From: a virus
Lineage: Duplodnaviria; Heunggongvirae; Uroviricota; Caudoviricetes
Direction: 5' to 3' (one strand)
DNA length: 64,000 nt
IMG/VR virus record: IMGVR_UViG_3300031555_003801
Location: 1 to 64,000 of that record
How positions within the stretch are numbered: position 1 is the stretch's first letter; each line of letters opens with the position of its first letter. Positions 1,713 to 14,007 of this stretch are shown here, piece after piece. Made by a program: the position numbers and the translations under genes. The notes under the pieces were generated by a model. The model saw only the letters and a list, made by a program, of their open reading frames with translations, did not search any database and was not told where the DNA came from.

Positions 1713-1837
1713 TTGATTTTTTAAAAAATATATGATATAATATATTATAATAAAAATTAAGAGAGGAAAATTTTAGAAGTTTTCCTCTCTTGGATATGTA
1801 TTTTTAATAAAAATTTTTATTTAAGAATTTTTATTAA

Positions 1838-1952
1838 AGGCACATACAGCAAATCCTCAATTGCGAGAATGGCTCAATGGTAGAGCATAAGTCTGATAAA
1901 CTTACGGTTATTGGTTCGAATCCAATTTTTTGCACAAAATTGAAAGGTGCCT
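1838..1952 (+). repeat. Hairpin-flanked element 'a': inverted repeat AGGCAC/GTGCCT with conserved ACAGCAAA just 3' of the left arm; encloses an intact tRNA-Ile
   Basis: ggcacat-ACAGCAAA at 1839-1853 and gtgcct at 1947-1952. Member of an 8-copy family (see findings). Confidence 0.5.
1863..1934 (+). tRNA. tRNA-Ile (anticodon GAT)
   Basis: Hand-folded cloverleaf. Acceptor gcgagaa/tttttgc (2 G-U). D arm gctc-aatggta-gagc. Anticodon arm taagt-ctGATaa-actta. T arm attgg-ttcgaat-ccaat. Confidence 0.65.
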
Positions 1953-1969
1953 AGAAAAAATATCATAAT

Positions 1970-1998
1970 TTGAAAAATTAAAAAAAATATGATATAAT
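1970..1998 (+). promoter_or_regulatory. sigma70-like promoter: TTGAAA-N17-TATAAT, extended -10 (TGaTATAAT)
   Basis: ttgaaa 1970-1975, 17-nt A-rich spacer ending atatga, tataat 1993-1998. Member of a recurrent promoter family. Confidence 0.6.
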
Positions 1999-2137
1999 AT
2001 TTATATAATAAAGGTTAAAAAACTTTTATTAAAAAATCCTATTTTATATAGGTTGGTGCGGTCGCATTTCCTTTCCGCCATAATGAACGGAAAACGCATA
2101 GGTTAAAAGGTTCCTATTCAAAAAAACCTATAAATAT

Positions 2138-2213
2138 GGGATTGTAGCTCTAGCGGGAGAGCGCCTGGCTTGCATCCAGGAGGTCGTGGGTTCAAATCCC
2201 ACCAGTTCCACCA
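2138..2213 (+). tRNA. tRNA-Ala (anticodon TGC), CCA encoded
   Basis: Acceptor gggattg/cagttcc. D arm gctc-tagcggga-gagc. Anticodon arm cctgg-ctTGCat-ccagg. T arm gtggg-ttcaaat-cccac. 3' acca. Confidence 0.75.
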
Positions 2214-2309
2214 GAAGCGTCGGTTAATGATATCTATGCCGAATAGCCAAAGAGAAGTTCTCAATACGGGTTGCAAACTGTTGCGATAAAATATTCTCCG
2301 CTTTGCCAT

Positions 2310-2384
2310 GTCTCCTTAGTTCAACGGACAGAATATTTGGCTACGAACCAGAAGATGAAGGTTCGATTCCTTTGGGGGATACCA
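2310..2384 (+). tRNA. tRNA-like, probable tRNA-Arg (anticodon ACG), irregular D arm
   Basis: Anticodon arm tttgg-ctACGaa-ccaga. T arm gaagg-ttcgatt-ccttt. CCA present. The acceptor needs 3 G-U pairs and the D arm is unclear. Confidence 0.35.
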
Positions 2385-2471
2385 CAATTATCTAAAAAAC
2401 TATATGAAGTCAAGTTTCAGTTTCTTCTTTCCTTTCTTATTTGGCTGTTTTAAAGACTTCTTAAAAATTTT

Positions 2472-2593
2472 GCTAGACACTTACAGCAAAACATATTGGG
2501 AACAATATATCGTGAGTTCGAGTCTCACTCCGTCCGCCATTAAATTGGACAGATCGCCTAGTTGGTAAGGCAATTATATTTTGAGTGTCTAGC
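2472..2593 (+). tRNA. Candidate circularly permuted tRNA-Pro (anticodon TGG): 3' half precedes 5' half, whole unit enclosed by 9-bp inverted repeat GCTAGACAC/GTGTCTAGC and preceded by ACAGCAAA
   Basis: 3' half: T arm gtgag-ttcgagt-ctcac (2512-2528), acceptor 3' strand tccgtcc + g + CCA (2529-2539). 7-nt linker ttaaatt. 5' half: acceptor 5' strand ggacaga (2547-2553, pairs with tccgtcc with 1 A-C), D arm gcct-agttggta-aggc, anticodon-stem strand attat. Both halves carry ATT at the junction; the joined loop would be aTTGGga. Confidence 0.45.
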
Positions 2594-2627
2594 AAAATTT
2601 TTAAGCAAAAGTAAAAAATCTTTTATT

Positions 2628-2655
2628 TGAAAATTTTATAAAAAAATGTTATAAT
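2628..2655 (+). promoter_or_regulatory. sigma70-like promoter TTGAAA-N17-TATAAT (extended -10 TGtTATAAT)
   Basis: ttgaaa 2627-2632, tataat 2650-2655. Confidence 0.6.
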
Positions 2656-2822
2656 ATATTATAATAAAAAATAAAAATTGGTAGTACCCAGAAAATTCCG
2701 GGCATTGGGAGATGGGTCTAAAGGAACAAGTGACCTTATGAAGCGTAGGAATTACCAATTTATATTAGGTGGGAACCAGCCTTGATCCTCTTAATTTAAG
2801 AGTCTAAAATGGTCTTTAATAT

Positions 2823-2894
2823 TGGGGCGTCGCCAAGTGGTAAGGCACAGGGTTTTGATCCCTGCATCCGTAGGTTCGAATCCTACCGCCTCAG
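2823..2894 (+). tRNA. tRNA-Gln (anticodon TTG)
   Basis: Acceptor tggggcg/cgcctca. D arm gcc-aagtggtaa-ggc. Anticodon arm caggg-ttTTGat-ccctg. T arm gtagg-ttcgaat-cctac. Confidence 0.7.
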
Positions 2895-2896
2895 CG

Positions 2897-2955
2897 GTAT
2901 CAAGAGATAAACCTTCACGTGGTGATACTGATTTCGACAGATTATCTCAAAAAAA
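2897..2955 (+). repeat. Copy 1 of a ~55-nt structured element (GAGATAA ... TTATCTC stem around ACCTTCACGTGGTGATACTGATTTCGACAGA), followed by an A-run
   Basis: Near-identical to 10812-10866 (1 substitution). A diverged third copy at 5044-5100 has compensatory stem changes. Each copy follows an RNA gene 3' end. Confidence 0.5.
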
Positions 2956-2979
2956 TAAATAAAAAGGAGCTATTTAATT

Positions 2980-3597
2980 ATGGCATACATTTATAAAATT
3001 ACTAATTAGATTAATCAAAAATCTTATATTGGAAAAACTTCTAAAATAAATCCACAAAGAAGATGGATGGAACATAAAGCAGATAGTAATAATCCTAATA
3101 GAAATCATAGAGCTTTATATAAAGCTATGAATAAATATGGAATAGATAATTTTATTTTTGAAATTATTGAAGAAACTAATTTGCCAGAAGAACGAGAAAT
3201 ATATTATATACAATATTATAATACTTATCATAATGGTTATAATGAAACTCTCGGCGGAGATGGTGGTAAATATTTAGATTTACCAGAACAAGAAATTTGT
3301 AAATTCTATTTAAAAAATAGAAATTTAAAAGATACCGCTGAGTTTTTTAATCATGATCAATTAACTATTAAACAAGTATTATATAAATATAATATAGAAA
3401 TTATTTCTTCTTATGAAGTTTTAAAAGAAAAAACTTCTAAACCAGTTGCGAAATTAGATAAAAATACAGAAGAAATAATTGAAATTTATCCATCAGTTAT
3501 TGAAGCAGAAAGACAAAATTCATGTCATTCACATATAAAAGATGTTTGTCATGGAAAAAGAAAAACTGCTGGCGGATTTAAATGGAAATTTATATAA
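2980..3597 (+). CDS. GIY-YIG homing endonuclease, 1 in-frame TAG (3007)
   Basis: MAYIYKITN*INQKSYIGKT...RRWMEH (GIY-YIG motifs) continuing into the ORF-track frame 3067..3597. RBS AAGGAG at 2965. Lies inside the tRNA array. Confidence 0.7.
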
Positions 3598-3598
3598 T

Positions 3599-3674
3599 GG
3601 GATTATAGCTCAAAAGTGAAGAGCGATGGTCGAAAGATTGGAGGTTGTGAGTTCAAATCTCACTAATCCCACCA
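3599..3674 (+). tRNA. tRNA-like gene with non-pairing anticodon stem (possible pseudo-tRNA)
   Basis: Acceptor gggatta/taatccc is perfect. D arm gctc-aaaagtgaa-gagc. T arm gtgag-ttcaaat-ctcac. CCA present. The region atggtcgaaagattgga does not form an anticodon stem. Confidence 0.35.
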
Positions 3675-3771
3675 ACGGGCAGAAGTGTAGCAAATATGTG
3701 GCTGCCAAGAGAAGAAAACAAACCACGATGTGCGGGCAGTTGGGGACCTAACCCTAGCTGTAATTTAATAA

Positions 3772-3836
3772 AAAGATGCTAACAGCGATCTTAATGCAAG
3801 CATGCAAATCCTTCCAAGATTTAATAATAGCATCTT
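3772..3836 (+). repeat. Hairpin-flanked element 'h': AAAGATGCTA / TAGCATCTT inverted repeat with ACAGCGA after the left arm
   Basis: Variant member of the ACAGCAAA hairpin family. Confidence 0.4.
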
Positions 3837-3864
3837 GTATTTTCTTCCAAAAGGAGGAAAAAAA

Positions 3865-4146
3865 ATGTAGAATGAGATTTTAAATTTCATTAAACGACGT
3901 TGGAGTATTGACGCAAATTGGACTAATGGAAATTGTTTATGGTTTGCCAAAATTCTTCAATTACGCTTTCCGCAAATTCAAATATATTACCTTCCAATTA
4001 TAGGTCATTTTATTGTTTCTGATGGAGAAAATTACTATGATTGGAATGGAATTTATCTTCCAGAAGAAGAACCAATTAATTGGGAGGAATTGCGGAAAAG
4101 CGATTTTTTATGGGCTGAACGATTGATAAGAGATTGTTGGCTCTGA
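3865..4146 (+). CDS. Small hypothetical protein (93 aa) whose second codon is TAG (ATG TAG AAT...)
   Basis: Strong RBS AAGGAGGA 3851-3858. Reading frame M*NEILNFIKRRWSIDANWTNGNCLWFAKILQ...RDCWL with stop TGA 4144-4146. Confidence 0.4.
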
Positions 4147-4149
4147 TAT

Positions 4150-4235
4150 AGGTGGGCGGCAGAGTTGGAGAGCTGCGCCGGACTGTAAATCCGGTGCCTC
4201 AGGCTGAGTGGGTTCGAATCCCACCCCACCTACCA
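4150..4235 (+). tRNA. tRNA-Tyr (anticodon GTA), class II (long variable arm)
   Basis: Acceptor aggtggg/cccacct. Anticodon arm ccgga-ctGTAaa-tccgg. Variable arm tgcctcaggctgag. T arm gtggg-ttcgaat-cccac. CCA present. Confidence 0.75.
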
Positions 4236-4374
4236 TATATGTCATTTGCGCAATGACCTCGTTGGGAGAAAGGTCCCTCACGTTCAATACGAGAAACATA
4301 GCGGCCTCTATACTTTTCGCTTATCCGTTCTCTTCGTATATGCAGAAAGGCTATAAAAAGTTGAACATAATATA

Positions 4375-4448
4375 CCCTTAGTAGTCTAGTGGTAGGACGA
4401 CAGATTGTGATTCTGTTTGCGGCAGTTCAATTCTGCCCTAGGGGACCA
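4375..4448 (+). tRNA. tRNA-His (anticodon GTG)
   Basis: Acceptor cccttag/ctagggg. D arm gtc-tagtggtag-gac. Anticodon arm acaga-ttGTGat-tctgt. T arm ggcag-ttcaatt-ctgcc. CCA present. Confidence 0.7.
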
Positions 4449-4453
4449 ATATG

Positions 4454-4533
4454 TAGGCACATGTACCAAGGCTGGCGACGGAGTCTCCAAAATTCCGTGT
4501 GGTGGGTTCGATTCCCAACTGTCTATGCCAAAA
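4454..4533 (+). tRNA. tRNA-like sequence (canonical T arm and 3' CCA, unresolved D/anticodon arms)
   Basis: T arm tggg-ttcgatt-ccca followed by tgtctat-g-cca. Possible acceptor partner gtaggca. The anticodon region cggagtctccaaaattccg has an over-long loop. Confidence 0.3.
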
Positions 4534-4549
4534 AATAAAAATCAAAAAT

Positions 4550-4578
4550 TTGATTTTTATAAAAAAATATTGTATAAT
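4550..4578 (+). promoter_or_regulatory. sigma70-like promoter TTGATT-N17-TATAAT
   Basis: ttgatt 4550-4555, tataat 4573-4578 (ttgTATAAT). Confidence 0.55.
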
Positions 4579-4725
4579 ATATATACAATAAAAAAATAAA
4601 TAAAAATACTGAAAAAACTTGGATCCCATAAGTTGATTTAGTAAAGTGAGGGAATGGGTATAGGCCTCCGCTTTTAAAATGGCATTGAAAAATATGTACT
4701 GCTAAATCTTAGGTATTTTTTATAT

Positions 4726-4800
4726 GGTTTATTAGTTCATCGGTTAGAATGCCGGTTTGTCAGGCCGGAGAGGCGGGTTCGATTCCCGCATAAACCGCCA
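4726..4800 (+). tRNA. tRNA-Asp (anticodon GTC)
   Basis: Acceptor ggtttat/ataaacc. Anticodon arm ccggt-ttGTCag-gccgg. T arm gcggg-ttcgatt-cccgc. CCA present. Confidence 0.75.
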
Positions 4801-5043
4801 ATTTGCCCAATTAAATCTTGTATGGAGATTATAGTGGCTTTGGTCGGCCTCGGACCTAAGTAATGGCGATGAGGATATTTTTGAGATTGATTGGTATGCT
4901 CTTCACAGGTTTAGAAGAAACTAAAGATTGCGTATTACCCCCGGACGGTTAAGATTTTCAGATAAGGGTTAAGTTAGGTAAGAAAATCAATTGCATGCAA
5001 GGGTTTCATCATTTCCCTCACTGCGGTGGAAAAATGATAAATG

Positions 5044-5100
5044 ACTCACTATGTAAAAGAACCTTCTCGTGGTGTGAGTTGATTTCGACAGATACTTTTA
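5044..5100 (+). repeat. Diverged copy 3 of the ~55-nt structured element: stem GTAAAAG/CTTTTAC around AACCTTCTCGTGGTGTGAGTTGATTTCGACAGATA
   Basis: Core conserved with copies at 2897 and 10812. The outer stem sequence is different but still complementary (covariation). Confidence 0.45.
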
Positions 5101-5706
5101 CAAAAAAATAAATGCTAAATAACTCAGTGCTAAACTGTATCTCGCAGATATGGCTGAGGTATGCGGAAAATGGTCGGCAGAAAACGAAGCAGGGATACCT
5201 GTTGATACTGGCCCGCTGGTTCTAAGGTGACGAAGTTCCAGAAGAGGAGAGAACTCCCAAACGAAACGCATAGCATTTCATATATCGCAAATAAAAGCAG
5301 TAAGCGAATGGGCGAGGCAATAGAAAGCTCTGTGAATAGCGGAGCCGAATCCAAGTTAGGGTTTAGCTGGTGACTGTATCAATCCTTGGAAATACCAACA
5401 ACTCGTTTGGCCGTGAAGCAGAGAAATCTGTGTATAACATTTGCGCGCAACGTCCGAGTAGGTCAAGGCTATATTGCAATTCAAATTTTTGAAAGTTCTT
5501 ATTTGTTGTAGAAGAATTAACAAGAAATTTACTGAATTGTGGCTGAAAGGTGTGGGTAATCAATCCCGCATAGGACATTGGCTTTTAAAGCTGGGTTAAA
5601 AAAGTCACTGGGGTAGCTCCCCTAGGCTCAGATTTAACTCCCTATTGGCTGAATATATTTGAAGATATGTGACGTAGAACGAAGGTTCATTTAGCATTTT
5701 TTTTAT

Positions 5707-5780
5707 GCGGTATTGGTGTAGAGGTAACATAAGAGCCTTCCAAGCTTGGGTCGCGGGTTCGATTCCCGCATACCGCTCCA
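5707..5780 (+). tRNA. tRNA-Gly (anticodon TCC)
   Basis: Acceptor gcggtat/ataccgc. Anticodon arm agagc-ctTCCaa-gcttg. T arm gcggg-ttcgatt-cccgc. CCA present. Confidence 0.65.
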
Positions 5781-5784
5781 TTAT

Positions 5785-5858
5785 GTGCTAGATTCTTTGC
5801 GGCGAGGAAGTGGTCTGCAAAACCATCAGAGTTGGTTCGACTCCAACCTAGCACTCCA
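5785..5858 (+). tRNA. tRNA-Cys (anticodon GCA)
   Basis: Acceptor gtgctag/ctagcac is perfect. Anticodon arm gtggt-ctGCAaa-accat. T arm gttgg-ttcgact-ccaac. CCA present. Confidence 0.7.
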
Positions 5859-5934
5859 AAAATAATTTGCCGGCATGGCGCAATGGTAGCGCAGGACATT
5901 TGTAATGTCAAGGCTGGGGGTTCAAGTCCCTCTG
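5859..5934 (+). tRNA. tRNA-Thr (anticodon TGT)
   Basis: Acceptor gccggca/tgccggc. D arm gcgc-aatggta-gcgc. Anticodon arm ggaca-ttTGTaa-tgtca. T arm ggggg-ttcaagt-ccctc. CCA present. Confidence 0.7.
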
Positions 5935-6087
5935 CCGGCTCCACTTCGCAGGATGATACTTGCGACAATAACTAATTAGATAACTTCTATCCTCTTTGGG
6001 AATGTTATTTGTGGATAGTCGTATAATAAACATTCCAATTATATAAAATGCCGAATTGGCCATCTGATTCGGCATTTATAAAAATGA

Positions 6088-6164
6088 TGCGGGGTAGACC
6101 AGTGGCTAAGTCGTTAGGCTCATAACCTAAAAATCGAGGGTTCGAGTCCCTCCCGCCGCAACCA
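6088..6164 (+). tRNA. tRNA-Met/fMet/Ile2-type (anticodon CAT)
   Basis: Anticodon arm ttagg-ctCATaa-cctaa is perfect. T arm gaggg-ttcgagt-ccctc. Acceptor tgcgggg/cgccgca has 1 mismatch. CCA present. Confidence 0.6.
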
Positions 6165-6180
6165 GTTAAAAAATCATAAT

Positions 6181-6209
6181 TTGAAAATTTAAAAAAATTA
6201 TGATATAAT
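6181..6209 (+). promoter_or_regulatory. sigma70-like promoter TTGAAA-N17-TATAAT
   Basis: ttgaaa 6181-6186, tataat 6204-6209 (tgaTATAAT). Lies upstream of hairpin element 'c'. Confidence 0.6.
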
Positions 6210-6263
6210 ATTTATATAATAAAAATTTTTAGGCATATACAGCAAATTGGTTTTTTCTTACAA

Positions 6264-6340
6264 ATAGTCTGCAAAACTAATGGTTGTTGGTTCGAGTCCA
6301 ACCTTGAGATTTTATCTCAAGTAGCTCAATTGGGAGAGCT
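6264..6340 (+). tRNA. Candidate circularly permuted tRNA-Cys (anticodon GCA): anticodon arm, T arm and acceptor 3' strand are followed by a 5-nt loop and then the acceptor 5' strand and D arm
   Basis: Anticodon arm atagt-ctGCAaa-actaa (6264-6280). T arm gttgg-ttcgagt-ccaac (6286-6302). Acceptor 3' cttgaga (6303-6309). Loop t+ttta. Acceptor 5' tctcaag (6315-6321) is the exact reverse complement. D arm gctc-aattggga-gagc (6324-6339). Leader ttctta (6255-6260) pairs with trailer taagaa (6344-6349), bringing positions 26/27 together. ACAGCAAA at 6239-6246. Confidence 0.5.
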
Positions 6341-6366
6341 TAATAAGAATATGTGTCTAGAATTAT

Positions 6367-6441
6367 TGGGGGGTGGCGCAATGGCGGCGCGGGTGGCTGT
6401 TAACCACAAGGCTGCGGGTTCGAGTCCCGCCCTCCCAGCCA
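6367..6441 (+). tRNA. tRNA-Asn (anticodon GTT)
   Basis: Acceptor tgggggg/cctccca (1 G-U). Anticodon loop ctGTTaa. T arm gcggg-ttcgagt-cccgc. CCA present. Confidence 0.7.
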
Positions 6442-6445
6442 TTAT

Positions 6446-6522
6446 GGTTCTATAGTGTAATAGGTAAACACATCAGGTTTTCAACCTGAAAAGTCTGGGT
6501 TCGATCCCCAGTAGAATCACCA
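6446..6522 (+). tRNA. tRNA-Glu (anticodon TTC)
   Basis: Acceptor ggttcta/tagaatc. D arm gtgt-aataggtaa-acac. Anticodon arm tcagg-ttTTCaa-cctga. T arm ctggg-ttcgatc-cccag. CCA present. Confidence 0.75.
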
Positions 6523-6789
6523 GGAAAACAATAATTAAAGAAATTGACAAAGGGAAGCCTTTTAAGAGAAAGTACCTGTACTATCTCGGATTAGCGGTTT
6601 ATTGTACCATAGTATACGGGTTTAGGTCGCCGCCATTGACGGGTCGCATAAGCGTCTATAAATAAAAGGTGTGCGTCTTGGTTTGGTAGTAAAATACGAT
6701 AGTCCATGTAGCGTAAGCGAAGTATAAACTACCACTATGAGTTGATAAATAATATGCTTGTTGTTTATCAGCTCTATTTTTTTCTCTTT

Positions 6790-6877
6790 GGAGGAGTACT
6801 CAAGTGGTTAAGAGGGCAGTTTGCTAAACTGTTAGGGTGTAACAGCCGCGTGGGTTCGAACCCCACCTCCTCCGCCA
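6790..6877 (+). tRNA. tRNA-Ser (anticodon GCT), class II
   Basis: Acceptor ggaggag/ctcctcc is perfect. Anticodon arm gcagt-ttGCTaa-actgt. Long variable arm. T arm gtggg-ttcgaac-cccac. CCA present. Confidence 0.75.
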
Positions 6878-6888
6878 AAAATCTTAAT

Positions 6889-6917
6889 TTGAAAAATTTA
6901 AAAAAATATGATATAAT
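6889..6917 (+). promoter_or_regulatory. sigma70-like promoter TTGAAA-N17-TATAAT
   Basis: ttgaaa 6889-6894, tataat 6912-6917. Immediately followed by hairpin element 'd'. Confidence 0.6.
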
Positions 6918-6926
6918 ATTTATATA

Positions 6927-7000
6927 AAGATGGTTACAGCAAATATTTTGATATAACACATTTAATTAGGGATTAAAAGCGTATTATAATAAACCATCTT
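6927..7000 (+). repeat. Hairpin-flanked element 'd': AAGATGGTT / AACCATCTT with ACAGCAAA (6936-6943)
   Basis: 9-bp inverted repeat. It starts about 10 nt downstream of the -10 element and ends 8 nt before the split tRNA. Confidence 0.5.
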
Positions 7001-7007
7001 GCATTAT

Positions 7008-7572
7008 GTCCCATTAGCTCAGTAGGCTAGAGCACGTGACTTTTTAGACTCATGTAGATTGACAATTACTCAAAGAGGTGAAAAAATATGTTGAGTAGTC
7101 ATTTTATAGGAGAAATTACAGAACAGCAAGTGGCAGTTGAATTCTTAAAATTAGGTATTTTAGTTTCGAAGCCATTAGTACAAAGTTCGAAGTATGATTT
7201 TATAGCGGATATAAATCATAAACTTTATAAAATTCAAGTAAAAACTGGAACTTATAAAGAAGATGCTTATTTAGAATTTGCTACAAGTACAAGTCATACA
7301 AATACTAAAGGAACATTAAATCTTTCTTATTCAGAAGATGATGTTGATTTCTTTGCTACAATGCATGAAGGACAATGTTATTTAGTTCCTTATCATCTTT
7401 GTGGTAAAAGAATCCAAAGAATAAGATTTGTTCCAACTAAAAATGGACAAACAAAAGGAATTTTGTTTGCGAAAGATTTTCATTTAGAGGATATAGTAAA
7501 AACTTTGTAATTGTCATTCTGAAGGACTAAAAAATCACGGTGTCCGCAGTTCGAGTCTGCGATGGGACACCA
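7008..7572 (+). tRNA. tRNA gene (probably tRNA-Lys TTT) split in the anticodon loop by a ~490-bp ORF-containing insertion (intron-like)
   Basis: 5' exon: acceptor gtcccat (7008-7014), D arm gctc-agtaggcta-gagc, anticodon-stem strand cgtga (7035-7039). 3' exon: tcacg (7535-7539, exact complement), variable gtgtc, T arm cgcag-ttcgagt-ctgcg, acceptor atgggac (exact complement) + a + CCA (7562-7572). The insertion's ends pair into an extended rod (tttttag/ctaaaaa and tgacaattac/gtaattgtca). Confidence 0.55.
7088..7510 (+). CDS. ORF inside the tRNA insertion: PD-(D/E)XK-like nuclease candidate (possible homing endonuclease)
   Basis: 140 aa. Motif YDFIADINHKLYKIQVKT resembles D...(E/Q)xK. RBS AAAGAGGTG upstream. 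A PD-(D/E)XK homing endonuclease in a tRNA-fMet group I intron (I-Ssp6803I) is a precedent. Confidence 0.45.
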   Translation: MLSSHFIGEITEQQVAVEFLKLGILVSKPLVQSSKYDFIADINHKLYKIQVKTGTYKEDAYLEFATSTSHTNTKGTLNLSYSEDDVDFFATMHEGQCYLVPYHLCGKRIQRIRFVPTKNGQTKGILFAKDFHLEDIVKTL

Positions 7573-7711
7573 TTTATTAGTCCACTATGTGGATCAACAG
7601 CGTTAACATGGATTTGTAAGTTAAACTACCACCGACGGAATTCTATGAATGAAGGTATGTGGCTTAGTGGCAAACGCTATATAAGAAGGCAAAGTAAACT
7701 TACTATAATAT

Positions 7712-7788
7712 GTCCCTGTAATCCAACAGGTAGAGATAGTGGACTTAAAATCCATCCAGTGTGAGTTCGAATCTCACCAGGGACACCA
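7712..7788 (+). tRNA. tRNA with anticodon TAA (Leu-type anticodon) but class I architecture (5-nt variable loop)
   Basis: Acceptor gtccctg/cagggac is perfect. Anticodon arm gtgga-ctTAAaa-tccat. T arm gtgag-ttcgaat-ctcac. Discriminator A. CCA present. Confidence 0.5.
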
Positions 7789-7793
7789 AATAT

Positions 7794-7870
7794 GTCCCAT
7801 TAGCCCAATTGGCAGAGGCGTCTGACTTAGGATCAGATCAGTGCAGGTTCGAATCCTGTGTGGGGCACCA
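7794..7870 (+). tRNA. tRNA with anticodon TAG (Leu CUN-type anticodon) but class I architecture
   Basis: Acceptor gtcccat/gtggggc (2 G-U). Anticodon arm tctga-ctTAGga-tcaga is perfect. T arm gcagg-ttcgaat-cctgt. CCA present. Confidence 0.55.
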
Positions 7871-7876
7871 TTTAAA

Positions 7877-7971
7877 AAGACGCTAGAATACAGCAATTAT
7901 TTTAGGTTAATAGAATTTTGTTGAAGAAGATTTTTAGATGGTTCGAATCCATCACAAGAACCTAGCGTCTT
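7877..7971 (+). repeat. Hairpin-flanked element 'g': AAGACGCTAG / CTAGCGTCTT (10 bp) with ACAGCAA; encloses an orphan tRNA 3' half (T arm gatgg-ttcgaat-ccatc + acaagaa)
   Basis: The inverted repeat, the motif and the T-arm-like segment are all visible in the sequence. No matching 5' half was found. Confidence 0.45.
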
Positions 7972-8098
7972 GTTTTGATTTATTCTGTTACTTAAATTGA
8001 GCGGATGTAGCCGAATTGGTATAGATACATGATTCTAGAGATTTGAATTATTTTACCTATAAATAATAATATTATTAGTTTAAAAGAATATAAATAAA

Positions 8099-8947
8099 AT
8101 GGAATTAATTGATTTTACAAAAGAGATAAATAATGCTTAGTTATTTGTAGGTTCTGGTAAAAAGAAAAAATTATTAATTAATTATAACAATGAATAGTAT
8201 ATAATTAAATTTGCTAAAAATATATGTACAAATAATCAAGGTATTATTACAAATTAGAGAGGCTTTTCAGAATATTTAGCTTGTCAAATTTATCAAAATG
8301 CAGAATTTTTTGTTTAGGAAACTTTATTAGGTTATTATAAAAATAAAAATAATATTTTAACTGCTTGTAAACTTGCAAATAATAAAATTACAGATTTTAG
8401 TTTTTTTATGGAAAAATATGATTATAAAGTAAGTAATAAATTAAATGATATTTTATTAGTTTGTAAATATATTAATATAGAAGAATACTTTTGGGATATG
8501 TTTATTATAGATGCTTTTATTGGTAATACAGATCGTAATACTGGTAATTGGGGATTATTTTATAATGAAAAATTAGATAAAATATTAAGCGTTCCTTTTA
8601 TTTTTGACTGTGAAAATAGTTTTTATCCCAATATGAATGATTATATTTTATAGAATTATTGTCAAAAAGAATTAAAAGAAATAGCTTATAATTATCCAGA
8701 ATCAAAAATAATTTATAATAATAAAAATATAAATTATTTTAATTTTATTTCTTCTTTAGAGAATGAAGATTGTAATGAAGCTTTAAAAAGAATTGTTCCT
8801 AAAATTGATATAGAAAAAATTATTTAGATTATAAATGATCTTCCACTTGAAAAAATATAGAAAAATTTTTTAATAACAATTCTTCAAAAAAGAAAAGAAT
8901 TATTAAATCTTGTTTTAATAAAACTTAATGAAAGAGAAAACCAATGA
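8099..8947 (+). CDS. HipA-like (HipA/CtkA kinase family, divergent catalytic motif) protein with 7 in-frame TAG codons
   Basis: VGSGKKKKL (P-loop-like) and FIIDAFIGNTDRNTGNWG (HipA C-terminal motif region, with D-R-N in place of D-x-H). Same frame as ORF-track fragment 8408..8653. Overlaps the E1 start (ATGA). Confidence 0.5.
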
Positions 8948-9675
8948 TTAGATATAAAGAAAATATTGATGAATTTAATTTAACAGAAAAAATTCAAAAT
9001 CAATTATTAACAAAAAATATTGCAGTAATTGGTTGTGGCGGACAAGGTGGATATACTTTAGAATTTCTTATTCGATTAGGAATTAAATCTATTATTTTTT
9101 GGGATGGAGATTATTTTGAAGAATCTAATCTTAATAGACAAATAGGCTGTTTAATTCCAACGTTACAAAAAAACAAAGCTTTATCTATGAAAGAAAGGCT
9201 TCAACAAATTAATCCAGAAGTAGAATTAATTTGTTGTGATTGGTATTTTGGAGATAAAGAAGATGATAAAGAGAAACTATCTAAAGTAGATTTTATTTTT
9301 GATGCTGCAGATTGTAATTATAATATTTTTAAATTAAGAACAATTTTAAGAGAAGTCATTATTGAATATAATATTCCTATTATTCGTTTCCCTATAAATA
9401 TATTAGGAGGTTATGTTCATATTGAAACTATGAAAGATTTAAGCCATTTTGATTTTATTACGCATAGATTAATTTATCAAAATAAAAATGAAAAAATTTT
9501 TCCAGAAGCAGTAAGTCAACCCGCTTATAAATGTGCAATTATTGCGGGCGAAGCTGTAAATCAAATGGTTCAATATTTTTCTAATTGTAGATATGCGGCT
9601 ATTGATACAACTTTAAATATTGATCTTTATCATCATAAATATGTTGAAGAAGATAGATTTGGAATTATTCCATAA
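8944..9675 (+). CDS. ThiF/MoeB/E1-like adenylyltransferase
   Basis: Rossmann motif IAVIGCGGQGGY. Signature FEESNLNRQ. 243 aa. Confidence 0.75.
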   Translation: MIRYKENIDEFNLTEKIQNQLLTKNIAVIGCGGQGGYTLEFLIRLGIKSIIFWDGDYFEESNLNRQIGCLIPTLQKNKALSMKERLQQINPEVELICCDWYFGDKEDDKEKLSKVDFIFDAADCNYNIFKLRTILREVIIEYNIPIIRFPINILGGYVHIETMKDLSHFDFITHRLIYQNKNEKIFPEAVSQPAYKCAIIAGEAVNQMVQYFSNCRYAAIDTTLNIDLYHHKYVEEDRFGIIP

Positions 9676-9678
9676 TTT

Positions 9679-9759
9679 GGGGACATAGCTCAGTTGGTGA
9701 GAGCGCAGAGCTTATACCTCTGGAATCTGTCGAAGGTTCAAGTCCTTCTGTCCCTACCA
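9679..9759 (+). tRNA. tRNA-Ile (anticodon TAT), 9-nt variable loop
   Basis: Acceptor ggggaca/tgtccct. D arm gctc-agttggtga-gagc. Anticodon arm cagag-ctTATac-ctctg. T arm gaagg-ttcaagt-ccttc. CCA present. Confidence 0.55.
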
Positions 9760-9766
9760 TTTTTAT

Positions 9767-9839
9767 TAGACACAAACAGCAAAATATTTTATGTCAAGCA
9801 AGGAACTTTTAATTCTTATAATAGCTAATAAAGTGTCTA
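9767..9839 (+). repeat. Hairpin-flanked element 'e': TAGACAC / GTGTCTA with ACAGCAAA (9776-9783)
   Basis: Inverted repeat enclosing ~57 nt with no tRNA. Lies between tRNA-Ile(TAT) and tRNA-Ile(GAT). Confidence 0.5.
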
Positions 9840-9846
9840 GAAAATA

Positions 9847-9923
9847 TTGAGAAGTAGCTCAGATGGTTAGAGCGCAGGTCTGATAAACCTGAGGTCGTGA
9901 GTTCAATTCTCACCTTCTCAACC
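9847..9923 (+). tRNA. tRNA-Ile (anticodon GAT), second copy
   Basis: Acceptor tgagaag/cttctca is perfect. D arm gctc-agatggtta-gagc. Anticodon arm caggt-ctGATaa-acctg. T arm gtgag-ttcaatt-ctcac. CCA present. Confidence 0.75.
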
Positions 9924-9932
9924 ATATTAATA

Positions 9933-10009
9933 TCTGGGTATAGCTCAGTTTGGCAGAGCGCCTGATTTGGGTTCAGGAGGCCGCAAGTTCGAATCTTGCT
10001 ACTCAGACC
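9933..10009 (+). tRNA. tRNA-Pro (anticodon TGG), canonical copy
   Basis: Acceptor ctgggta/tactcag. D arm gctc-agtttggca-gagc. Anticodon arm cctga-ttTGGgt-tcagg. T arm gcaag-ttcgaat-cttgc. CCA present. Confidence 0.75.
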
Positions 10010-10325
10010 AGTCCACCGTTTATGTTTTCCTTTCCTACTTTTGGAACATAAGAATAAGGTGGAGAAAGTAGGGCCGCTTAACCGGTTTATATTTATTAGT
10101 AGGCTGCAGAGCCATGTGTATATAGTATTTTTAAATCTCGCAAAAGTCTCACGATATGTTAAGATATCGCGCTGCTGTAATATGTGAATAATGTGAGTAC
10201 GCAATTTTATAAATGAGTATCGGCCTTGGTGTGGATGTTGATGGAGAGGCGACACGGAGCTCTACTTCGTATCTTTGGTGTCAGAGGTTAATTGTCTAAA
10301 ATCGAGAAAATTTATAAAATTATGT

Positions 10326-10420
10326 GGAGGCGTACCGAAGTGGCTATAACGGCGCAGACTTGAAATCTGTTGTGTCAGCTAGTACCTGACGCGGGGGTTC
10401 AAATCCTCCCGCCTCCGCCA
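10326..10420 (+). tRNA. tRNA-Ser (anticodon TGA), class II
   Basis: Acceptor ggaggcg/cgcctcc is perfect. Anticodon arm gcaga-ctTGAaa-tctgt. Long variable arm. T arm ggggg-ttcaaat-cctcc. CCA present. Confidence 0.75.
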
Positions 10421-10463
10421 ATAACAATGAAGAGTTAAAGGCCTGTAAGGACTTTAACTATTA

Positions 10464-10813
10464 CGGGGCTGAAAATGGTTTCGACAGGGTTGTGAAAAAT
10501 TTTAAATCCGCAGGTGTGATTTACCTTACAAATCAAACTTAAATATAAACGCAAAACCTTATAGATTAGCTGCCTAATTAATTGGTAGGCCTAAACGACA
10601 TGCTTGTTGTTCAGCTAAATGTCTGCGGCTCGAGGAATAGAACAATCACCCCAAAGTTTCTTAATTCTTTTTCAAAAATTAAGTGGTGGATACGATGTTT
10701 GTAAAGTGTCTTTACAAAACCCTGAGTTGGTTATCTCTAAAATAACCTATTGCGTAAGTATGATTTAAAATTAGTAACAGTTTTGGACGCGAGTTCGACT
10801 CTCGCCAGCTCCA
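10464..10813 (+). ncRNA. ssrA: tmRNA (ssrA-like transfer-messenger RNA)
   Basis: 5' end GGGGCTGAAAATGGTTTCGACAGGG (tmRNA tRNA-like domain). 3' end ggacgcgag-ttcgact-ctcgc-cagctcc-a (T arm + acceptor pairing with GGGGCTG). Internal tag-like reading frame GCA AAA CCT TAT AGA TTA GCT GCC TAA (…AKPYRLAA*) ending in the typical LAA + TAA. Confidence 0.65.
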
Positions 10814-10866
10814 GGCATCAAGAGATAAACCTTCACGTGGTGATGCTGATTTCGACAGATTATCTC
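10812..10866 (+). repeat. Copy 2 of the ~55-nt structured element (immediately 3' of the tmRNA)
   Basis: catcaagagataaaccttcacgtggtgatGctgatttcgacagattatctcaaaaa. One substitution relative to copy 1. Confidence 0.5.
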
Positions 10867-10898
10867 AAAAATTGTTCTCATTTTCTTTATTTCTATTA

Positions 10899-11052
10899 AG
10901 ACTCAATACAGCAAAATTATAAAACTTGTTTAGGCAATATATAAACTCTACAGAAAATGTGCTGGTGACACGCTTTCACTGTTGTTATTATTTGATAGTA
11001 AGAAAAACAGGGATAATAACGCTAATAAAAACTGTTAAATTCTTTTGAGTCT
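10899..11052 (+). repeat. Hairpin-flanked element 'f': AGACTCAA / TTGAGTCT enclosing ~140 nt, with ACAGCAAA at 10908-10915
   Basis: 8-bp inverted repeat. The insert has no ORF. The suppressor tRNA follows directly. Confidence 0.45.
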
Positions 11053-11061
11053 AGTATTAAA

Positions 11062-11151
11062 GCTCCGTAGTCTAATGGTAAAACGCCGGACTCTAAATCC
11101 GTTATACTCTCTGAAAGGGTAATCTGGGTTCGAATCCCAGCGGGGCCGCCA
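11062..11151 (+). tRNA. Amber suppressor tRNA (anticodon CTA, reads UAG), class II with long variable arm
   Basis: Anticodon arm (c)cgga-ctCTAaa-tccg(t) with U33 and A37. Variable stem tactct/agggta. T arm ctggg-ttcgaat-cccag. Acceptor agctccg/cggggcc (1 A-C at 1-72) + g + CCA. The D arm is irregular. Confidence 0.6.
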
Positions 11152-11160
11152 ATTTTTAAT

Positions 11161-11193
11161 AGCCAGTTTATATTTTTATAAACTGGCTTTTTG
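11161..11193 (+). terminator. Rho-independent terminator closing the tRNA array
   Basis: agccagtttata-ttttt-ataaactggct followed by tttt. Confidence 0.7.
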
Positions 11194-11201
11194 TTATTTA
11201 T

Positions 11202-11230
11202 TTGAAAAAAATTAAAAAATATGATATAAT
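11202..11230 (+). promoter_or_regulatory. sigma70-like promoter TTGAAA-N17-TATAAT
   Basis: ttgaaa 11202-11207, tataat 11225-11230 (tgaTATAAT). Confidence 0.6.
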
Positions 11231-11264
11231 AAACTATGATAAAAAATAAAAAAGGATAAAATAT

Positions 11265-12230
11265 ATGGAATTAATTGACTTTACGAAAGCAATAAATAAT
11301 GCTTAGTTATTTAAACCTACTGGTAACAATAAAAAAAAATTAAAAATTATTTATAATAATGAAGAATATATAATAAAAACTTCAAAATATACAATTGAAC
11401 AAGATAAAGAAAATAAATATAAAATGATTGAATTGTATAATACAATATCGGAATATTTAGGTTGTAAAATTTATGATAGTTTAAATATACCTGCACAAAA
11501 AACTTTATTAGGATATTATTAGTATAAAAATAAAAAACAAATGATAATTGCTTGTAAAAATTTTAATATTGATGATAGTTTTCTTCCTTTTGGTATATTC
11601 TTTAATAAAGAACGACAACAAGATAATAATAAATTGCAATCTTTAGAAATAAAAAATATTATAAAAAAAATTGAAGAACAAAATATTTATGATTCTCAAA
11701 AAATAAAAAAACGTTTTTGGGATATGTTTATTATTGATGCTTTTATTGATAATCCCGATAGAACTTCTGGAAACTGGGGTTTTATAAAAGATAAAAAAAC
11801 AAATACAATCATAAATTTTTGTCCAATTTTTGATTGTGAATAGAACATATTTTTAGAAATACTATTAAAAAATAAAAAACAATTATTAAATAATTAGAAT
11901 AAAATAAATTTTTTAGCTATATCGCCTTTTAAAAAATCTTATTTAATTTATGATAATAAAGTTATAAATTATTTTAATTTTATTTCCTCTTTAGAAAATG
12001 AAGATTGTAATGAAGCTTTAAAAAGAATTGTTCCTAAAATTGATATGGAAAAAATTATTTAGATTATAAATGATCTTCCACTTGAAGAATTCCAAAAAAA
12101 TAATTTAATAATAGTATTAAAAAAAAGAAAAGAATTATTATTAGATTTTCCTTTATTTCTCTTACAAAATATAGATAAAAGAGAAAAATACGAAAAAAAA
12201 ATAGAAAGGATAATATATGATAAATTATAA
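11265..12230 (+). CDS. HipA-like paralog with 5 in-frame TAG codons
   Basis: MELIDFTKAINNA*... FIIDAFIDNPDRTSGNWG. Same frame as ORF-track fragment 11541..11843. Its C-terminal ~125 bp is a near-exact direct repeat of the 3' end of 8099..8947. Stop TAA at 12228-12230 overlaps the ycaO start. Confidence 0.5.
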
Positions 12231-14007
12231 AAATCATTATAAAGAACGAAAACCAGAGGAAACAATAAAAATTATAGAAAACTTTTTTTTAAATCTCAAT
12301 ATGAAAATTAAAAGAAATGAAGTTATGATTAGTGAAATAAATACTTATTCAATACAAATAATATTATTTGATAAAAATGATTTTTTAATTTTATACGCTA
12401 ATGGTAAAGGTGAAACAGAAGAATTTGCAATTGCCTCTGCTTATGGCGAATTATATGAACGTTTCTGTAATATGAGATTTATTATGAAAGATGGTATTGC
12501 TCAAAATTTATTTTTACAAAAAAGAAAACAAAAATATAATTATTATTATCATCCAGAAGAAAAAGAATTTTCTTTAATAGAATTAATTAATGCCGATCAA
12601 AATTTTCATAATTTTTTCTTAGGAGATTTTTCTGAAAAAGATTCTGATATTATTAATTTTTATAATACACTTTTTAATAATAAATTTATTGCTGCGCCTT
12701 ATCAAGATTTATTAGATTCAAATAAACAATATTTTTATAACCCATATTTAATGACAGTGTTAAGAGGATCTGGCGGAATGGCTGCTGGAAATACATTAGA
12801 AGAAGCTTTAAATCAAGGCATTTCAGAACTTTACGAACATTATATTACAGATAAATTTCGTTATTTAAAAAAAGATTTTGATTTTCATTTTATAGATATT
12901 TCAACTATTAAAAACCAAAAATTAAAAGAAAAGATAAAATTATTAACAGATAATGAAAACTATGAATATTATTTAATTGATTTTTCTTATAATTTTAATG
13001 TACCTGTTTTATTATCTATTTTAATTGATAAAACTTTACAAAGATTTTTTATTAATTTTGGTTCTTTTCCTATTTTTGATATTGCTTTAGAAAGAACATT
13101 AACAGAATTATATCAAGGAGTTGTTTCTTTTAAAGAAGAAGAACAATCAAATAATATTATTGTTCCTTATAAAAGTGGAGTAACTATTATAGAAGCTTTA
13201 GACGCTACAGCAAATGTCACTAATTCTCTTTGTTTAAATGAAAGTTTTTTATTAAGTGAAAAAAAATTTTATTCCCCTAATTCAAAAATATTTTTATTTA
13301 ATCAGGATAAAAATTATTCAAATGAAGATATATTAAATTATTATAAAAAATTATCTTCTTATTTAAATATTAATTTTTGTTATTTAGATGTATCTCAATC
13401 TTCTGAAATGCATGCTATACAAATTTATAGTATAAATTTACCTCATTTCTCGTTACCTTTGGAAGCAAAAAAAATGCTTTACAAAAAACAACAATTAAAT
13501 GTTTATAAATTATTATCATATTTTATTCAGTTAGAAAATAAATGGCTAAATAATCATATATGGGATAATTTATTATGGGAAAAAATAATAATTTTATATA
13601 ATCAATTTACTATTGAAGATATTTTATTGTTTAATATTAGTGCCTCTATATTTTGTTTTAATTTTAGTAAAACTAATAATCTTTTATCATTAATTGAACA
13701 ATTTATAAAAATGGATTCAAATATTTATATGATTGAAGAACAAATTATTGCTATGTCTAATAAATCAATTCTTTCAGAAGATATTAAAAAATTCTTAACT
13801 CAATATAGGTATATTGTTAATAATGATTATCTTCCAAGTGAAAAAACTAAAATATTAAAAACTTTAATACCAGAATTTTCACAAGATGAAACATTATTTA
13901 AAAATATTATTACTCCAGAATATTTCTTACAAGTAATAATGGAAAAATTATATGAATATTATCATAGTGAAAAATATTCTGATTATCTTGATGCTTTAGT
14001 TGGATAA
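12217..14007 (+). CDS. YcaO-domain protein
   Basis: ANGKGETEEFAIASAYGELYERF matches the YcaO ATP-binding/cyclodehydratase signature. 596 aa. No TAG codons. Confidence 0.7.
   Translation: MINYKNHYKERKPEETIKIIENFFLNLNMKIKRNEVMISEINTYSIQIILFDKNDFLILYANGKGETEEFAIASAYGELYERFCNMRFIMKDGIAQNLFLQKRKQKYNYYYHPEEKEFSLIELINADQNFHNFFLGDFSEKDSDIINFYNTLFNNKFIAAPYQDLLDSNKQYFYNPYLMTVLRGSGGMAAGNTLEEALNQGISELYEHYITDKFRYLKKDFDFHFIDISTIKNQKLKEKIKLLTDNENYEYYLIDFSYNFNVPVLLSILIDKTLQRFFINFGSFPIFDIALERTLTELYQGVVSFKEEEQSNNIIVPYKSGVTIIEALDATANVTNSLCLNESFLLSEKKFYSPNSKIFLFNQDKNYSNEDILNYYKKLSSYLNINFCYLDVSQSSEMHAIQIYSINLPHFSLPLEAKKMLYKKQQLNVYKLLSYFIQLENKWLNNHIWDNLLWEKIIILYNQFTIEDILLFNISASIFCFNFSKTNNLLSLIEQFIKMDSNIYMIEEQIIAMSNKSILSEDIKKFLTQYRYIVNNDYLPSEKTKILKTLIPEFSQDETLFKNIITPEYFLQVIMEKLYEYYHSEKYSDYLDALVG

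Follow-up and report, generated by a model that had tools for sequence, protein, structure and literature searches.

The Ro60 proteins of bacteria and phages bind Y RNAs, among them the YrlA RNAs, whose effector module mimics a tRNA, with an optional V hairpin, a T arm, a closed acceptor stem and a D arm in this order (PMC4201824). The similarity of YrlAs to circularly permuted tRNAs has been noted (Chen et al. 2014, PMC4201824; Wang et al. 2018, bioRxiv 10.1101/312249), and the criterion that defined them was location near a Ro60 orthologue (within about 4 kb) on the same strand (PMC4201824). In vivo, RNase P cleaves a Mycobacterium smegmatis YrlA whose stem has 7 base pairs (bp), and CCA is added to this RNA (Chen et al. 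2014, PMC4201824). The authors of the YrlA structure suggested that some members of this class might mature into forms that are closer to tRNAs. A Ro60 together with the RNAs Yrl1 and Yrl2 is found in Thermus phage phiLo, where a role in hijacking the host polynucleotide phosphorylase (PNPase) has been proposed (PMC12135203). Permuted tRNA genes proper are known from Cyanidioschyzon merolae, green algae and Thermofilum pendens (Soma 2014, PMC3978253). Here, we analyzed an element at positions 6229-6360 of a 64,000-nucleotide (nt) stretch of phage DNA (IMG/VR record IMGVR_UViG_3300031555_003801, positions 1 to 64,000; hereafter the window), which had originally been predicted to be a permuted tRNA-Cys(GCA) gene.

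The element is a conserved and selected structure, far beyond what chance would produce. It is likely to be a phage-encoded Y RNA of the YrlA type that contains a complete tRNA look-alike in rearranged order, and judging from the comparisons below, the Ro60-like DUF2828 protein encoded at 14154-15710 is probably its partner. A covariance model (R2), which was trained on IMG/VR sequences only and is independent of the window, matched the element over its full length with 86.8 bits (E 2.5e-16), and a second site at 2473-2592 scored 87.2 bits. In an alignment of 18 non-redundant family members (A2), scored for a specified structure, 91.8% of the cells were paired, compensatory changes were found at 21 of the 26 pairs, and the covariation score was 0.734, compared with 0.245 for shuffles and 0.08-0.17 for slid controls. 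Every helix covaries in this alignment, the outer stem included, with the helices being 91-100% paired, and the 15:48 tertiary pair covaries as well (G:C in 9 members, A:U in 7, other in 2). The inner helix (P1b), which corresponds to the leader/trailer pairing TTCTTA/TAAGAA of the original prediction, is real for this subtype and was found to be compensatorily replaced by TTTTGTA/TACAAAA in L115, TTTCTT/AAGAAA in L093, ATTGTT/AACAAT in L120 and TTTACAA/TTGTAAA in the L002 group. All the pieces that had been listed (anticodon arm, variable loop, T arm, acceptor strands and D arm, besides leader and trailer) are indeed present, and the covariation in every helix together with the full-length R2 match shows that they form one structure, not two separate tRNA fragments.

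The phage family around the element is large. The pattern ACAGCAAA...GTTCGANTC...GYCTAG identified 35 IMG/VR loci and a second, looser pattern identified 67 metagenome loci from rumen, human gut and freshwater, while an element-specific pattern returned one distant IMG/VR relative (L072) and none in the metagenome collection. Members of the family share a terminal stem (UAGRCNC.../...GNGYCUAG) with the invariant bulge ACAGCAAA, and this stem encloses, in order, a hairpin, the T arm, the 7-bp acceptor closed into a hairpin, and the D arm. A literature search for DUF2828, YrlA, phage Ro60 and phage permuted tRNA found no description of this RNA family, which is not proof of novelty, and a near-identity search of positions 5000-12000 against GenBank phages returned nothing but short tRNA matches.

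The resemblance of these RNAs to tRNAs extends to the anticodon arm. A hairpin of anticodon-arm size with U33 and R37 precedes the T arm in 30 of the 69 family clusters, compared with 3.0 expected from shuffles, and the anticodon-arm-like hairpins are followed by a canonical variable loop of 4-5 nt; the shuffle control makes this an unbiased test, whereas the sequences of a further alignment (A4) had been chosen for pairing. The corresponding hairpin of the element (hairpin X) has 4 bp and an A.A mismatch, a 7-nt loop, and U33 and A37. Within a conserved YU-NNN-AA loop, the triplets of the family are diverse (GAU, GCA, GUA, UGA, GAA, UUU, CAU, CGA and GUU). The nearest relative, L115, retains the hairpin stem ATAGT/ACTAA with the loop CUGAUUA and U37, and five members from IMG/VR sample 3300045988 (L003, L012, L015, L020 and L027; e.g., L003:5468-5584) are near-identical, with the triplet as the sole difference (UGA, GAA or GCA in the loops CUUGAAA, CUGAAAA and CUGCAAA) and with a 5-bp acceptor closed by a GGCG tetraloop. 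Four members resemble a permuted bacterial tRNA-Tyr (L016:4293-4428, L026:8701-8839, L066:5760-5896 and L038:6276-6412), having a GUA loop, a long variable arm and A-CCA after the acceptor, and lie about 100 nt 5' of a DUF2828 gene; in L066 and L038, U33 is changed to A. Moreover, NCCA immediately follows the 3' strand of the 7-bp acceptor in 13 of the 69 clusters, where about 1 would be expected; no cluster has it at offsets 0, 2 or 3, and some acceptor loops of the family are merely N-CCA-U.

When the pieces of the element were rejoined in conventional order (6315-6340 followed by 6264-6310), ARAGORN called a tRNA-Cys(GCA), and rejoined relatives were accepted as tRNAs in 47 of 61 cases. The idea of a circularly permuted, complete cloverleaf carried on a leader/trailer stem between positions 26 and 27 is borne out. 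In linear order, ARAGORN made no call in place, and the Rfam tRNA model RF00005 gave a partial match only (19.4 bits at 6259-6302, model positions 8-63), below its gathering score of 29 bits. The sole non-tRNA Rfam match to the element in a permissive scan was YrlA (RF02553; 6264-6363, 35.1 bits, E 1.4e-4 in 14 kb); a second YrlA match was found at 2488-2594 (24.7 bits), and relatives score 30-41 bits with this model. Agreement with the YrlA consensus is seen in the T arm, in the closed acceptor hairpin and in GUAGCUCAAUUGG-AGAGC, but not in the stem region.

A link to a Ro60-type protein is suggested by the genes that accompany these RNAs. Ro60 structures were the best fold match to the predicted model of the DUF2828 protein, and homologues of this protein (23-60% identity) were found in 24 of the 103 RNA-defined loci. 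Among the 28 loci that hold both the RNA and a DUF2828 gene, the two are on the same strand in every case and the RNA is upstream in 27; the gap between them has a median of about 1.3 kb, is often 100-700 nt, measures 92-134 nt in four loci and places the RNA within 4 kb of the gene in 21. This same-strand upstream linkage is the signature that was used to define YrlA (PMC4201824). Beside the close homologues P0009, P0029 and P0097, synteny is not kept and only weak matches to the basal module were found. Proteins with DUF2828/DUF7788 are numerous in metagenomes, with at least 7,981 relatives scored in one search. In the window, the nearby genes encode an RNase T-like exonuclease, an RNA ligase (16784-18169), two metallophosphoesterases and a P-loop kinase, as well as a PIN domain protein, a PhoH-like protein and an SPFH/band-7 protein; together, these make up a set of RNA-repair type, such as has been discussed for jumbo phages. 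The Ro60-like gene is also flanked by a ThiF-like gene, a YcaO gene and two radical SAM genes (8944-9675, 12217-14007 and 20990-23373, plus strand), and radical SAM and ThiF genes adjoin DUF2828 in L073, L074 and L077 too, which raises the question of an RNA or peptide modification.

Table 1. Features of the element and associated loci in the window.
Feature	Position	Strand	Basis or remark
Whole element, Y-RNA-like non-coding RNA with circularly permuted tRNA-like core	6229-6360	+	R2 86.8 bits, R1 91.6 bits, Rfam YrlA 35.1 bits
Basal stem, 5' strand UAGGCAUAU	6230-6238	+	Pairs with 6351-6359, 9 bp, 2 G.U; covariation in alignment A2, columns 2-10/139-147
Single-stranded motif ACAGCAAA, proposed protein-binding bulge	6239-6246	+	Invariant in 18/18 aligned relatives
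Inner helix P1b, 5' strand TTCTTA	6255-6260	+	Pairs with 6344-6349
CAA linker	6261-6263	+	Opposite UAA 6341-6343
Hairpin X, anticodon-arm mimic ATAGT-CTGCAAA-ACTAA	6264-6280	+	GCA at 6271-6273; at position of YrlA V stem-loop
Variable-loop equivalent UGGUU, 5 nt	6281-6285	+	U6285 (position 48) pairs with A15 (6329)
T arm GTTGG-TTCGAGT-CCAAC	6286-6302	+	100% paired in family; compensatory changes at 4/5 pairs
Closed acceptor hairpin	6303-6321	+	7 bp; no encoded CCA; all 7 pairs covary
U8-A9 (6322-6323), D arm GCTC-AATTGGGA-GAGC (6324-6339) and nucleotide 26 (U6340)	6322-6340	+	Rfam YrlA alignment, family covariation
UAA linker	6341-6343	+	Followed by P1b 3' strand
Inner helix P1b, 3' strand TAAGAA	6344-6349	+	Pairs with 6255-6260
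Basal stem, 3' strand AUGUGUCUA and terminal G (conserved GYCUAG end)	6351-6360	+	Direct reading, alignment A2
Promoter-like site TTGAAA-N17-(TG)TATAAT	6181-6209	+	11/12 matches, extended -10; 20 nt 5' of element
Sibling element, earlier tRNA-Pro candidate	2460-2605	+	Perfect 22-bp terminal stem; R2 87.2 bits at 2473-2592
Basal module (stem, ACAGCAAA, CUAG) around ordinary-order tRNA-Ile(GAU)	1836-1954	+	tRNA without CCA, unlike 19/21 window tRNAs
518-amino-acid DUF2828+DUF7788 protein, proposed partner	14154-15710	+	Ro60-like model: helical repeat half and vWA

The architecture of the element (Table 1) includes an outer 9-bp stem, the ACAGCAAA motif and a terminal CUAG, all of which the original prediction had missed. 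In the acceptor hairpin, the 3' strand CTTGAGA (6303-6309) is followed by U73 (6310), UUUA and the perfectly complementary 5' strand TCTCAAG (6315-6321), so that the stem is closed by a 5-nt loop, and the nucleotides that usually make tertiary contacts are all present in the tRNA-like core. The sibling element has a hairpin X with a GGAA tetraloop and carries G-CCA directly after the acceptor 3' strand (2527-2530). This sibling and the element had been regarded as two independent permuted genes, for tRNA-Pro and tRNA-Cys, with different junctions; they are members of one family and share the same junction. The motif ACAGCAAA occurs in six copies within the tRNA cluster of the window, and the same combination of stem, ACAGCAAA and CUAG was found with other cargo in five places (1836-1954, 6926-7001, 7883-8038, 9766-9840 and 10897-11054, plus strand). 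Three of these RNAs hold A/U-rich inserts of 55-130 nt without tRNA features, and the cargo at 6926-7001, 9766-9840 and 10897-11054 is of a non-tRNA kind. Since the basal module flanks non-tRNA cargo as well as a tRNA in ordinary order, it is a general handle and not a splice signal, and it looks like a modular carrier.

Taking these features into consideration, a possible course of events can be outlined. Transcription would start from the promoter-like site at 6181-6209 and continue through the element, which leads the unit, into tRNA-Asn and tRNA-Glu, and since tRNA-Asn starts at 6367, 7 nt past the element, cleavage by RNase P at the tRNA-Asn 5' end would set and free the 3' end of the element. 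The RNA would then fold into a terminal stem, the ACAGCAAA bulge, an inner helix and a junction of four hairpins that represents a whole class I tRNA, a fold that is backed by covariation. By analogy to Ro60 and Y RNA, the module of stem and ACAGCAAA may bind the putatively ring-shaped DUF2828 protein, and the tRNA-shaped module could present the look-alike to proteins that recognize tRNAs and possibly tether them to the Ro60-like protein. A part in tRNA repair or turnover is suggested by the genes nearby, which encode the RNase T-like exonuclease, the RNA ligase, the kinase and the phosphoesterases. Alternatively, the RNA might lure host enzymes whose targets are particular anticodon loops. 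Opening of the 7-bp acceptor by RNase P is also plausible, given that the M. smegmatis YrlA has a stem of this length, and the nicked RNA would be held together by its stems.

Several observations weigh against a YrlA-type Y RNA with a Ro60-like partner. The match of the element to RF02553 reaches half the gathering score of that model (69 bits), and the Ro60-binding motif GNCGAAN0-1G / CGAA is absent from the terminal stem, where ACAGCAAA is found in its place. Sequence and profile searches with the DUF2828 protein gave no match to Pfam TROVE or to Ro60 chains in PDB, and its likeness to Ro60 is drawn from a predicted model of medium confidence (predicted local distance difference test, pLDDT, 66.9). 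Here, the distance from the RNA to the downstream DUF2828 gene on the same strand is 7.8 kb and thus exceeds 4 kb. Furthermore, exact anticodon-arm dimensions with a canonical variable loop, found here and in about a third of the family, and NCCA placed exactly after the acceptor 3' strand in the 13 clusters mentioned above suggest a more tRNA-like behaviour than a mere tether would need.

This tRNA likeness invites bolder readings. One that we put forward tentatively, and hold to be unlikely as a whole, is that jumbo phages of gut, rumen and freshwater carry a large family of complete permuted tRNA mimics on a Ro60-type handle, which would be opened by RNase P and be genuinely tRNA-like, with DUF2828 as an unrecognized Ro60 clade; the mimics, with their changeable triplet and frequent NCCA, could then be charged two-piece tRNAs or sacrificial targets for anticodon-specific defences. 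A related, rather unlikely reading of the element itself, which is compatible with a Y RNA of the YrlA type rather than exclusive of it, is a nicked two-piece tRNA mimic, in which RNase P, with RNase Z or exonucleases, would open the acceptor loop, CCA would be exposed or added, and the stems would hold the RNA together. Such a mimic, perhaps while sitting on the Ro60-like protein, might be charged or might engage EF-Tu, synthetases or CCA-dependent enzymes. A 7-bp acceptor stacked on the T arm is a determinant for RNase P, the M. smegmatis YrlA provides a precedent, and the excess of NCCA among the clusters, with the sibling at 2473-2592 included and some loops being only N-CCA-U, is in line with such a fate; the element itself, however, has no CCA and a loop of only 5 nt, and identity elements are inconsistent over the family.

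The diversity of the triplets could also indicate a decoy for anticodon-directed host defences, although we consider this improbable. The mimic would in that case soak up or report anticodon nucleases or modification enzymes, and the triplet would evolve fast in an arms race. Triplets differ within an otherwise conserved loop and even between near-identical RNAs that differ in nothing else, a conventional tRNA of the same triplet is found alongside the element in this window, in L131 and in L128, so that the mimic duplicates a tRNA of its own cluster, and there is linkage to genes of a repair type. For jumbo phages, a connection of tRNA supply and tRNA repair with defences that cleave tRNAs has been made in the literature. 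An anticodon-like loop, however, is missing from about two thirds of the family, a candidate nuclease was not identified, and the variation of the triplet would be equally explicable by a lack of constraint.

A true circularly permuted tRNA-Cys gene, as originally predicted, appears very improbable. Its transcript would lose the stem, be ligated between 26 and 27 to a circle (for example, by the phage RNA ligase encoded at 16784-18169), be opened in the acceptor loop by RNase P and RNase Z, receive CCA and decode UGY. In its favour, the element has U73, the discriminator for cysteinyl-tRNA synthetase (CysRS), as well as arms and loops of exact tRNA size, NCCA is found in some relatives, and an RNA ligase, a kinase and phosphoesterases are encoded in the genome, in addition to the ARAGORN calls on the rejoined sequences of the element and of its relatives. 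The leader/trailer pairing next to 3-nt bulges had been thought to juxtapose 26 and 27. Maturation of the algal and archaeal type involves a bulge-helix-bulge (BHB) of 3-nt bulges separated by a 4-bp helix (Soma 2014, PMC3978253). A BHB was rejected on geometry, since the CAA and UAA linkers lie at one and the same end of the 6-bp P1b helix, with no central 4-bp helix and no BHB. No tRNA-splicing endonuclease domain was found among the 49 open reading frames (ORFs) of the window that were scanned against Pfam, and, to our knowledge, no such endonuclease is known in bacteria. The same stem module also flanks RNAs without a tRNA core, triplet and position 37 differ in L115, and other GCA members combine their triplet with a discriminator that does not fit it (C73 in L131, A73 in L019). 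In many family members, the hairpin is unfit as an anticodon arm. The element would also be redundant with the conventional tRNA-Cys(GCA) at 5785-5858, 400 nt upstream, and does not encode the CCA that tRNAs of this genome do. An origin from that tRNA-Cys was likewise rejected, since its identity to the rejoined sequence, at 66%, is only the seventh best among the tRNAs of the window, which makes it no closer than six others; the T stem GTTGG/CCAAC that the two share is common in the family. We do not read the element as a gene for a tRNA-Cys that is produced by splicing and used in translation.

Chen et al. caution that tRNA dimers can imitate YrlA (PMC4201824). The family models do indeed give 28-33 bits to a pair of tRNA-Leu genes at 7716-7836, but a chance juxtaposition or decayed remnants, with a 5' fragment of one tRNA pseudogene lying downstream of a 3' fragment of another, are so improbable as to be negligible. 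This reading is refuted by the covariation in every helix and the R2 match; there is also no D arm upstream and no T arm downstream, the acceptor strands are perfectly complementary across the 5-nt loop and the full-length model match reaches 87-92 bits.

The window forms part of a phage-like contig of 188 kb (JGI 3300029305 Ga0307249_10001222). The genes of the window are all on one strand and include those for gyrase, NAD-dependent ligase, DnaB, the Pol III alpha subunit, NrdD, ThyX, a tail lysozyme and a CHAP domain protein. Within 1863-11151, there are 21 tRNA genes, of which 19 encode CCA, a transfer-messenger RNA (tmRNA) and a ROOL RNA. This tRNA cluster is punctuated by five near-identical promoter-like sites (1970-1998, 2627-2655, 6181-6209, 6889-6917 and 11202-11230, plus strand), each with TTGAAA-N17-TATAAT and an extended -10 TG inside a repeated block of about 45 nt. 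Among the free-standing tRNAs of the window, tRNA-Gln(UUG) (2823-2895, plus strand) is the sole one that does not encode CCA; it is preceded by 165 unannotated nt, reaching back to the promoter at 2627, that seem to be structured. The full-length ROOL RNA (5099-5707, plus strand; RF03087, 337 bits) ends exactly where tRNA-Gly starts. A tRNA-Lys(UUU) at 7009-7573 (plus strand) is split by about 495 nt inserted in the anticodon loop, its 5' part consisting of acceptor, D arm and CGUGA-CUUUU and its 3' part of AA-UCACG, T arm, acceptor and ACCA; the insert carries an ORF for a 140-amino-acid PD-(D/E)XK endonuclease (PF11645, 7088-7510), which leaves only about 75 nt non-coding, and matched no group I or group II intron model, a focused Rfam scan included. 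The phage also encodes the tmRNA (tag AKPYRLAA*) and a tRNA that combines a CUA anticodon with a long extra arm (10465-10813 and 11061-11151, plus strand). This tRNA would act as an amber suppressor and hints at stop-codon recoding, and a similar tRNA is present in L128.

If our interpretation of the element as a YrlA-type Y RNA is correct, DUF2828/DUF7788 proteins would gain a predicted role as RNA-binding rings of the Ro60 type, together with their RNA ligands, and the world of Y RNAs would reach a distinct phage branch that is missed by current Rfam thresholds and in which the tRNA mimic is complete, including an anticodon loop and sometimes a CCA end. The variation in triplet and CCA would provide natural test cases for what the tRNA-like module of YrlA binds, and the phage RNAs would be the best candidates for testing the idea that YrlAs mature into more tRNA-like forms. 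Caution would also be called for when permuted tRNA genes of bacteria and phages are annotated solely by cloverleaf logic.

Use of the tRNA L-shape for non-decoding purposes is exemplified by tmRNA and by viral tRNA-like structures such as that of turnip yellow mosaic virus (TYMV TLS), and two-piece permuted tmRNAs show that permuted tRNA-like domains occur in bacteria. Unlike the element, tmRNA and the TYMV TLS have a free CCA end and are aminoacylated, and they have no Ro60-type partner and no terminal Y-type stem. With the permuted tRNA genes of algae and archaea, the element shares the 3' half upstream of the 5' half, a paired leader and trailer, a good cloverleaf upon rejoining and a short sequence between the acceptor ends (1-74 nt in known cases, 5 nt here) (PMC3978253). 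The known junctions, however, are 20/21, 37/38, 50/51 and 59/60 with a BHB or BHB-like motif, as opposed to 26/27 here (PMC3978253), and the present case is from a bacteriophage with no splicing endonuclease among the 49 ORFs. Phage phiLo likewise has a Ro60-type ring protein with Y-like RNAs just upstream, in which a 5'-3' stem flanks a bulge with a short conserved motif, but this motif is CGAA, the RNAs are not described as tRNA-like and the protein is a recognizable TROVE protein (PMC12135203).

The element resembles YrlA in its layout. In both, the 5' and 3' ends are paired with a conserved bulge motif on the 5' side, ACAGCAAA being located where the GNCGAAN0-1G / CGAA motif sits in known Y RNAs, and the core has the order optional hairpin, T arm, closed acceptor-like stem, UA and D arm, with conserved D- and T-loop nucleotides and a covarying 15:48 pair. 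The family described here occurs in phages and is also found upstream of a putative Ro60-type gene, on the same strand and often among tRNAs, and the acceptor has 7 bp, as in the M. smegmatis YrlA that is cleaved by RNase P. By comparison, the stem module differs in having ACAGCAAA and a CUAG end, and the proposed partner is a DUF2828/DUF7788 protein without a sequence-level TROVE match. Canonical YrlA has no anticodon loop, whereas this RNA has a full anticodon-arm mimic (5 bp and 7 nt, U33, A37) followed by a 5-nt variable loop. Finally, some of its relatives encode NCCA, many copies per genome are possible and the same handle is used with other cargo.

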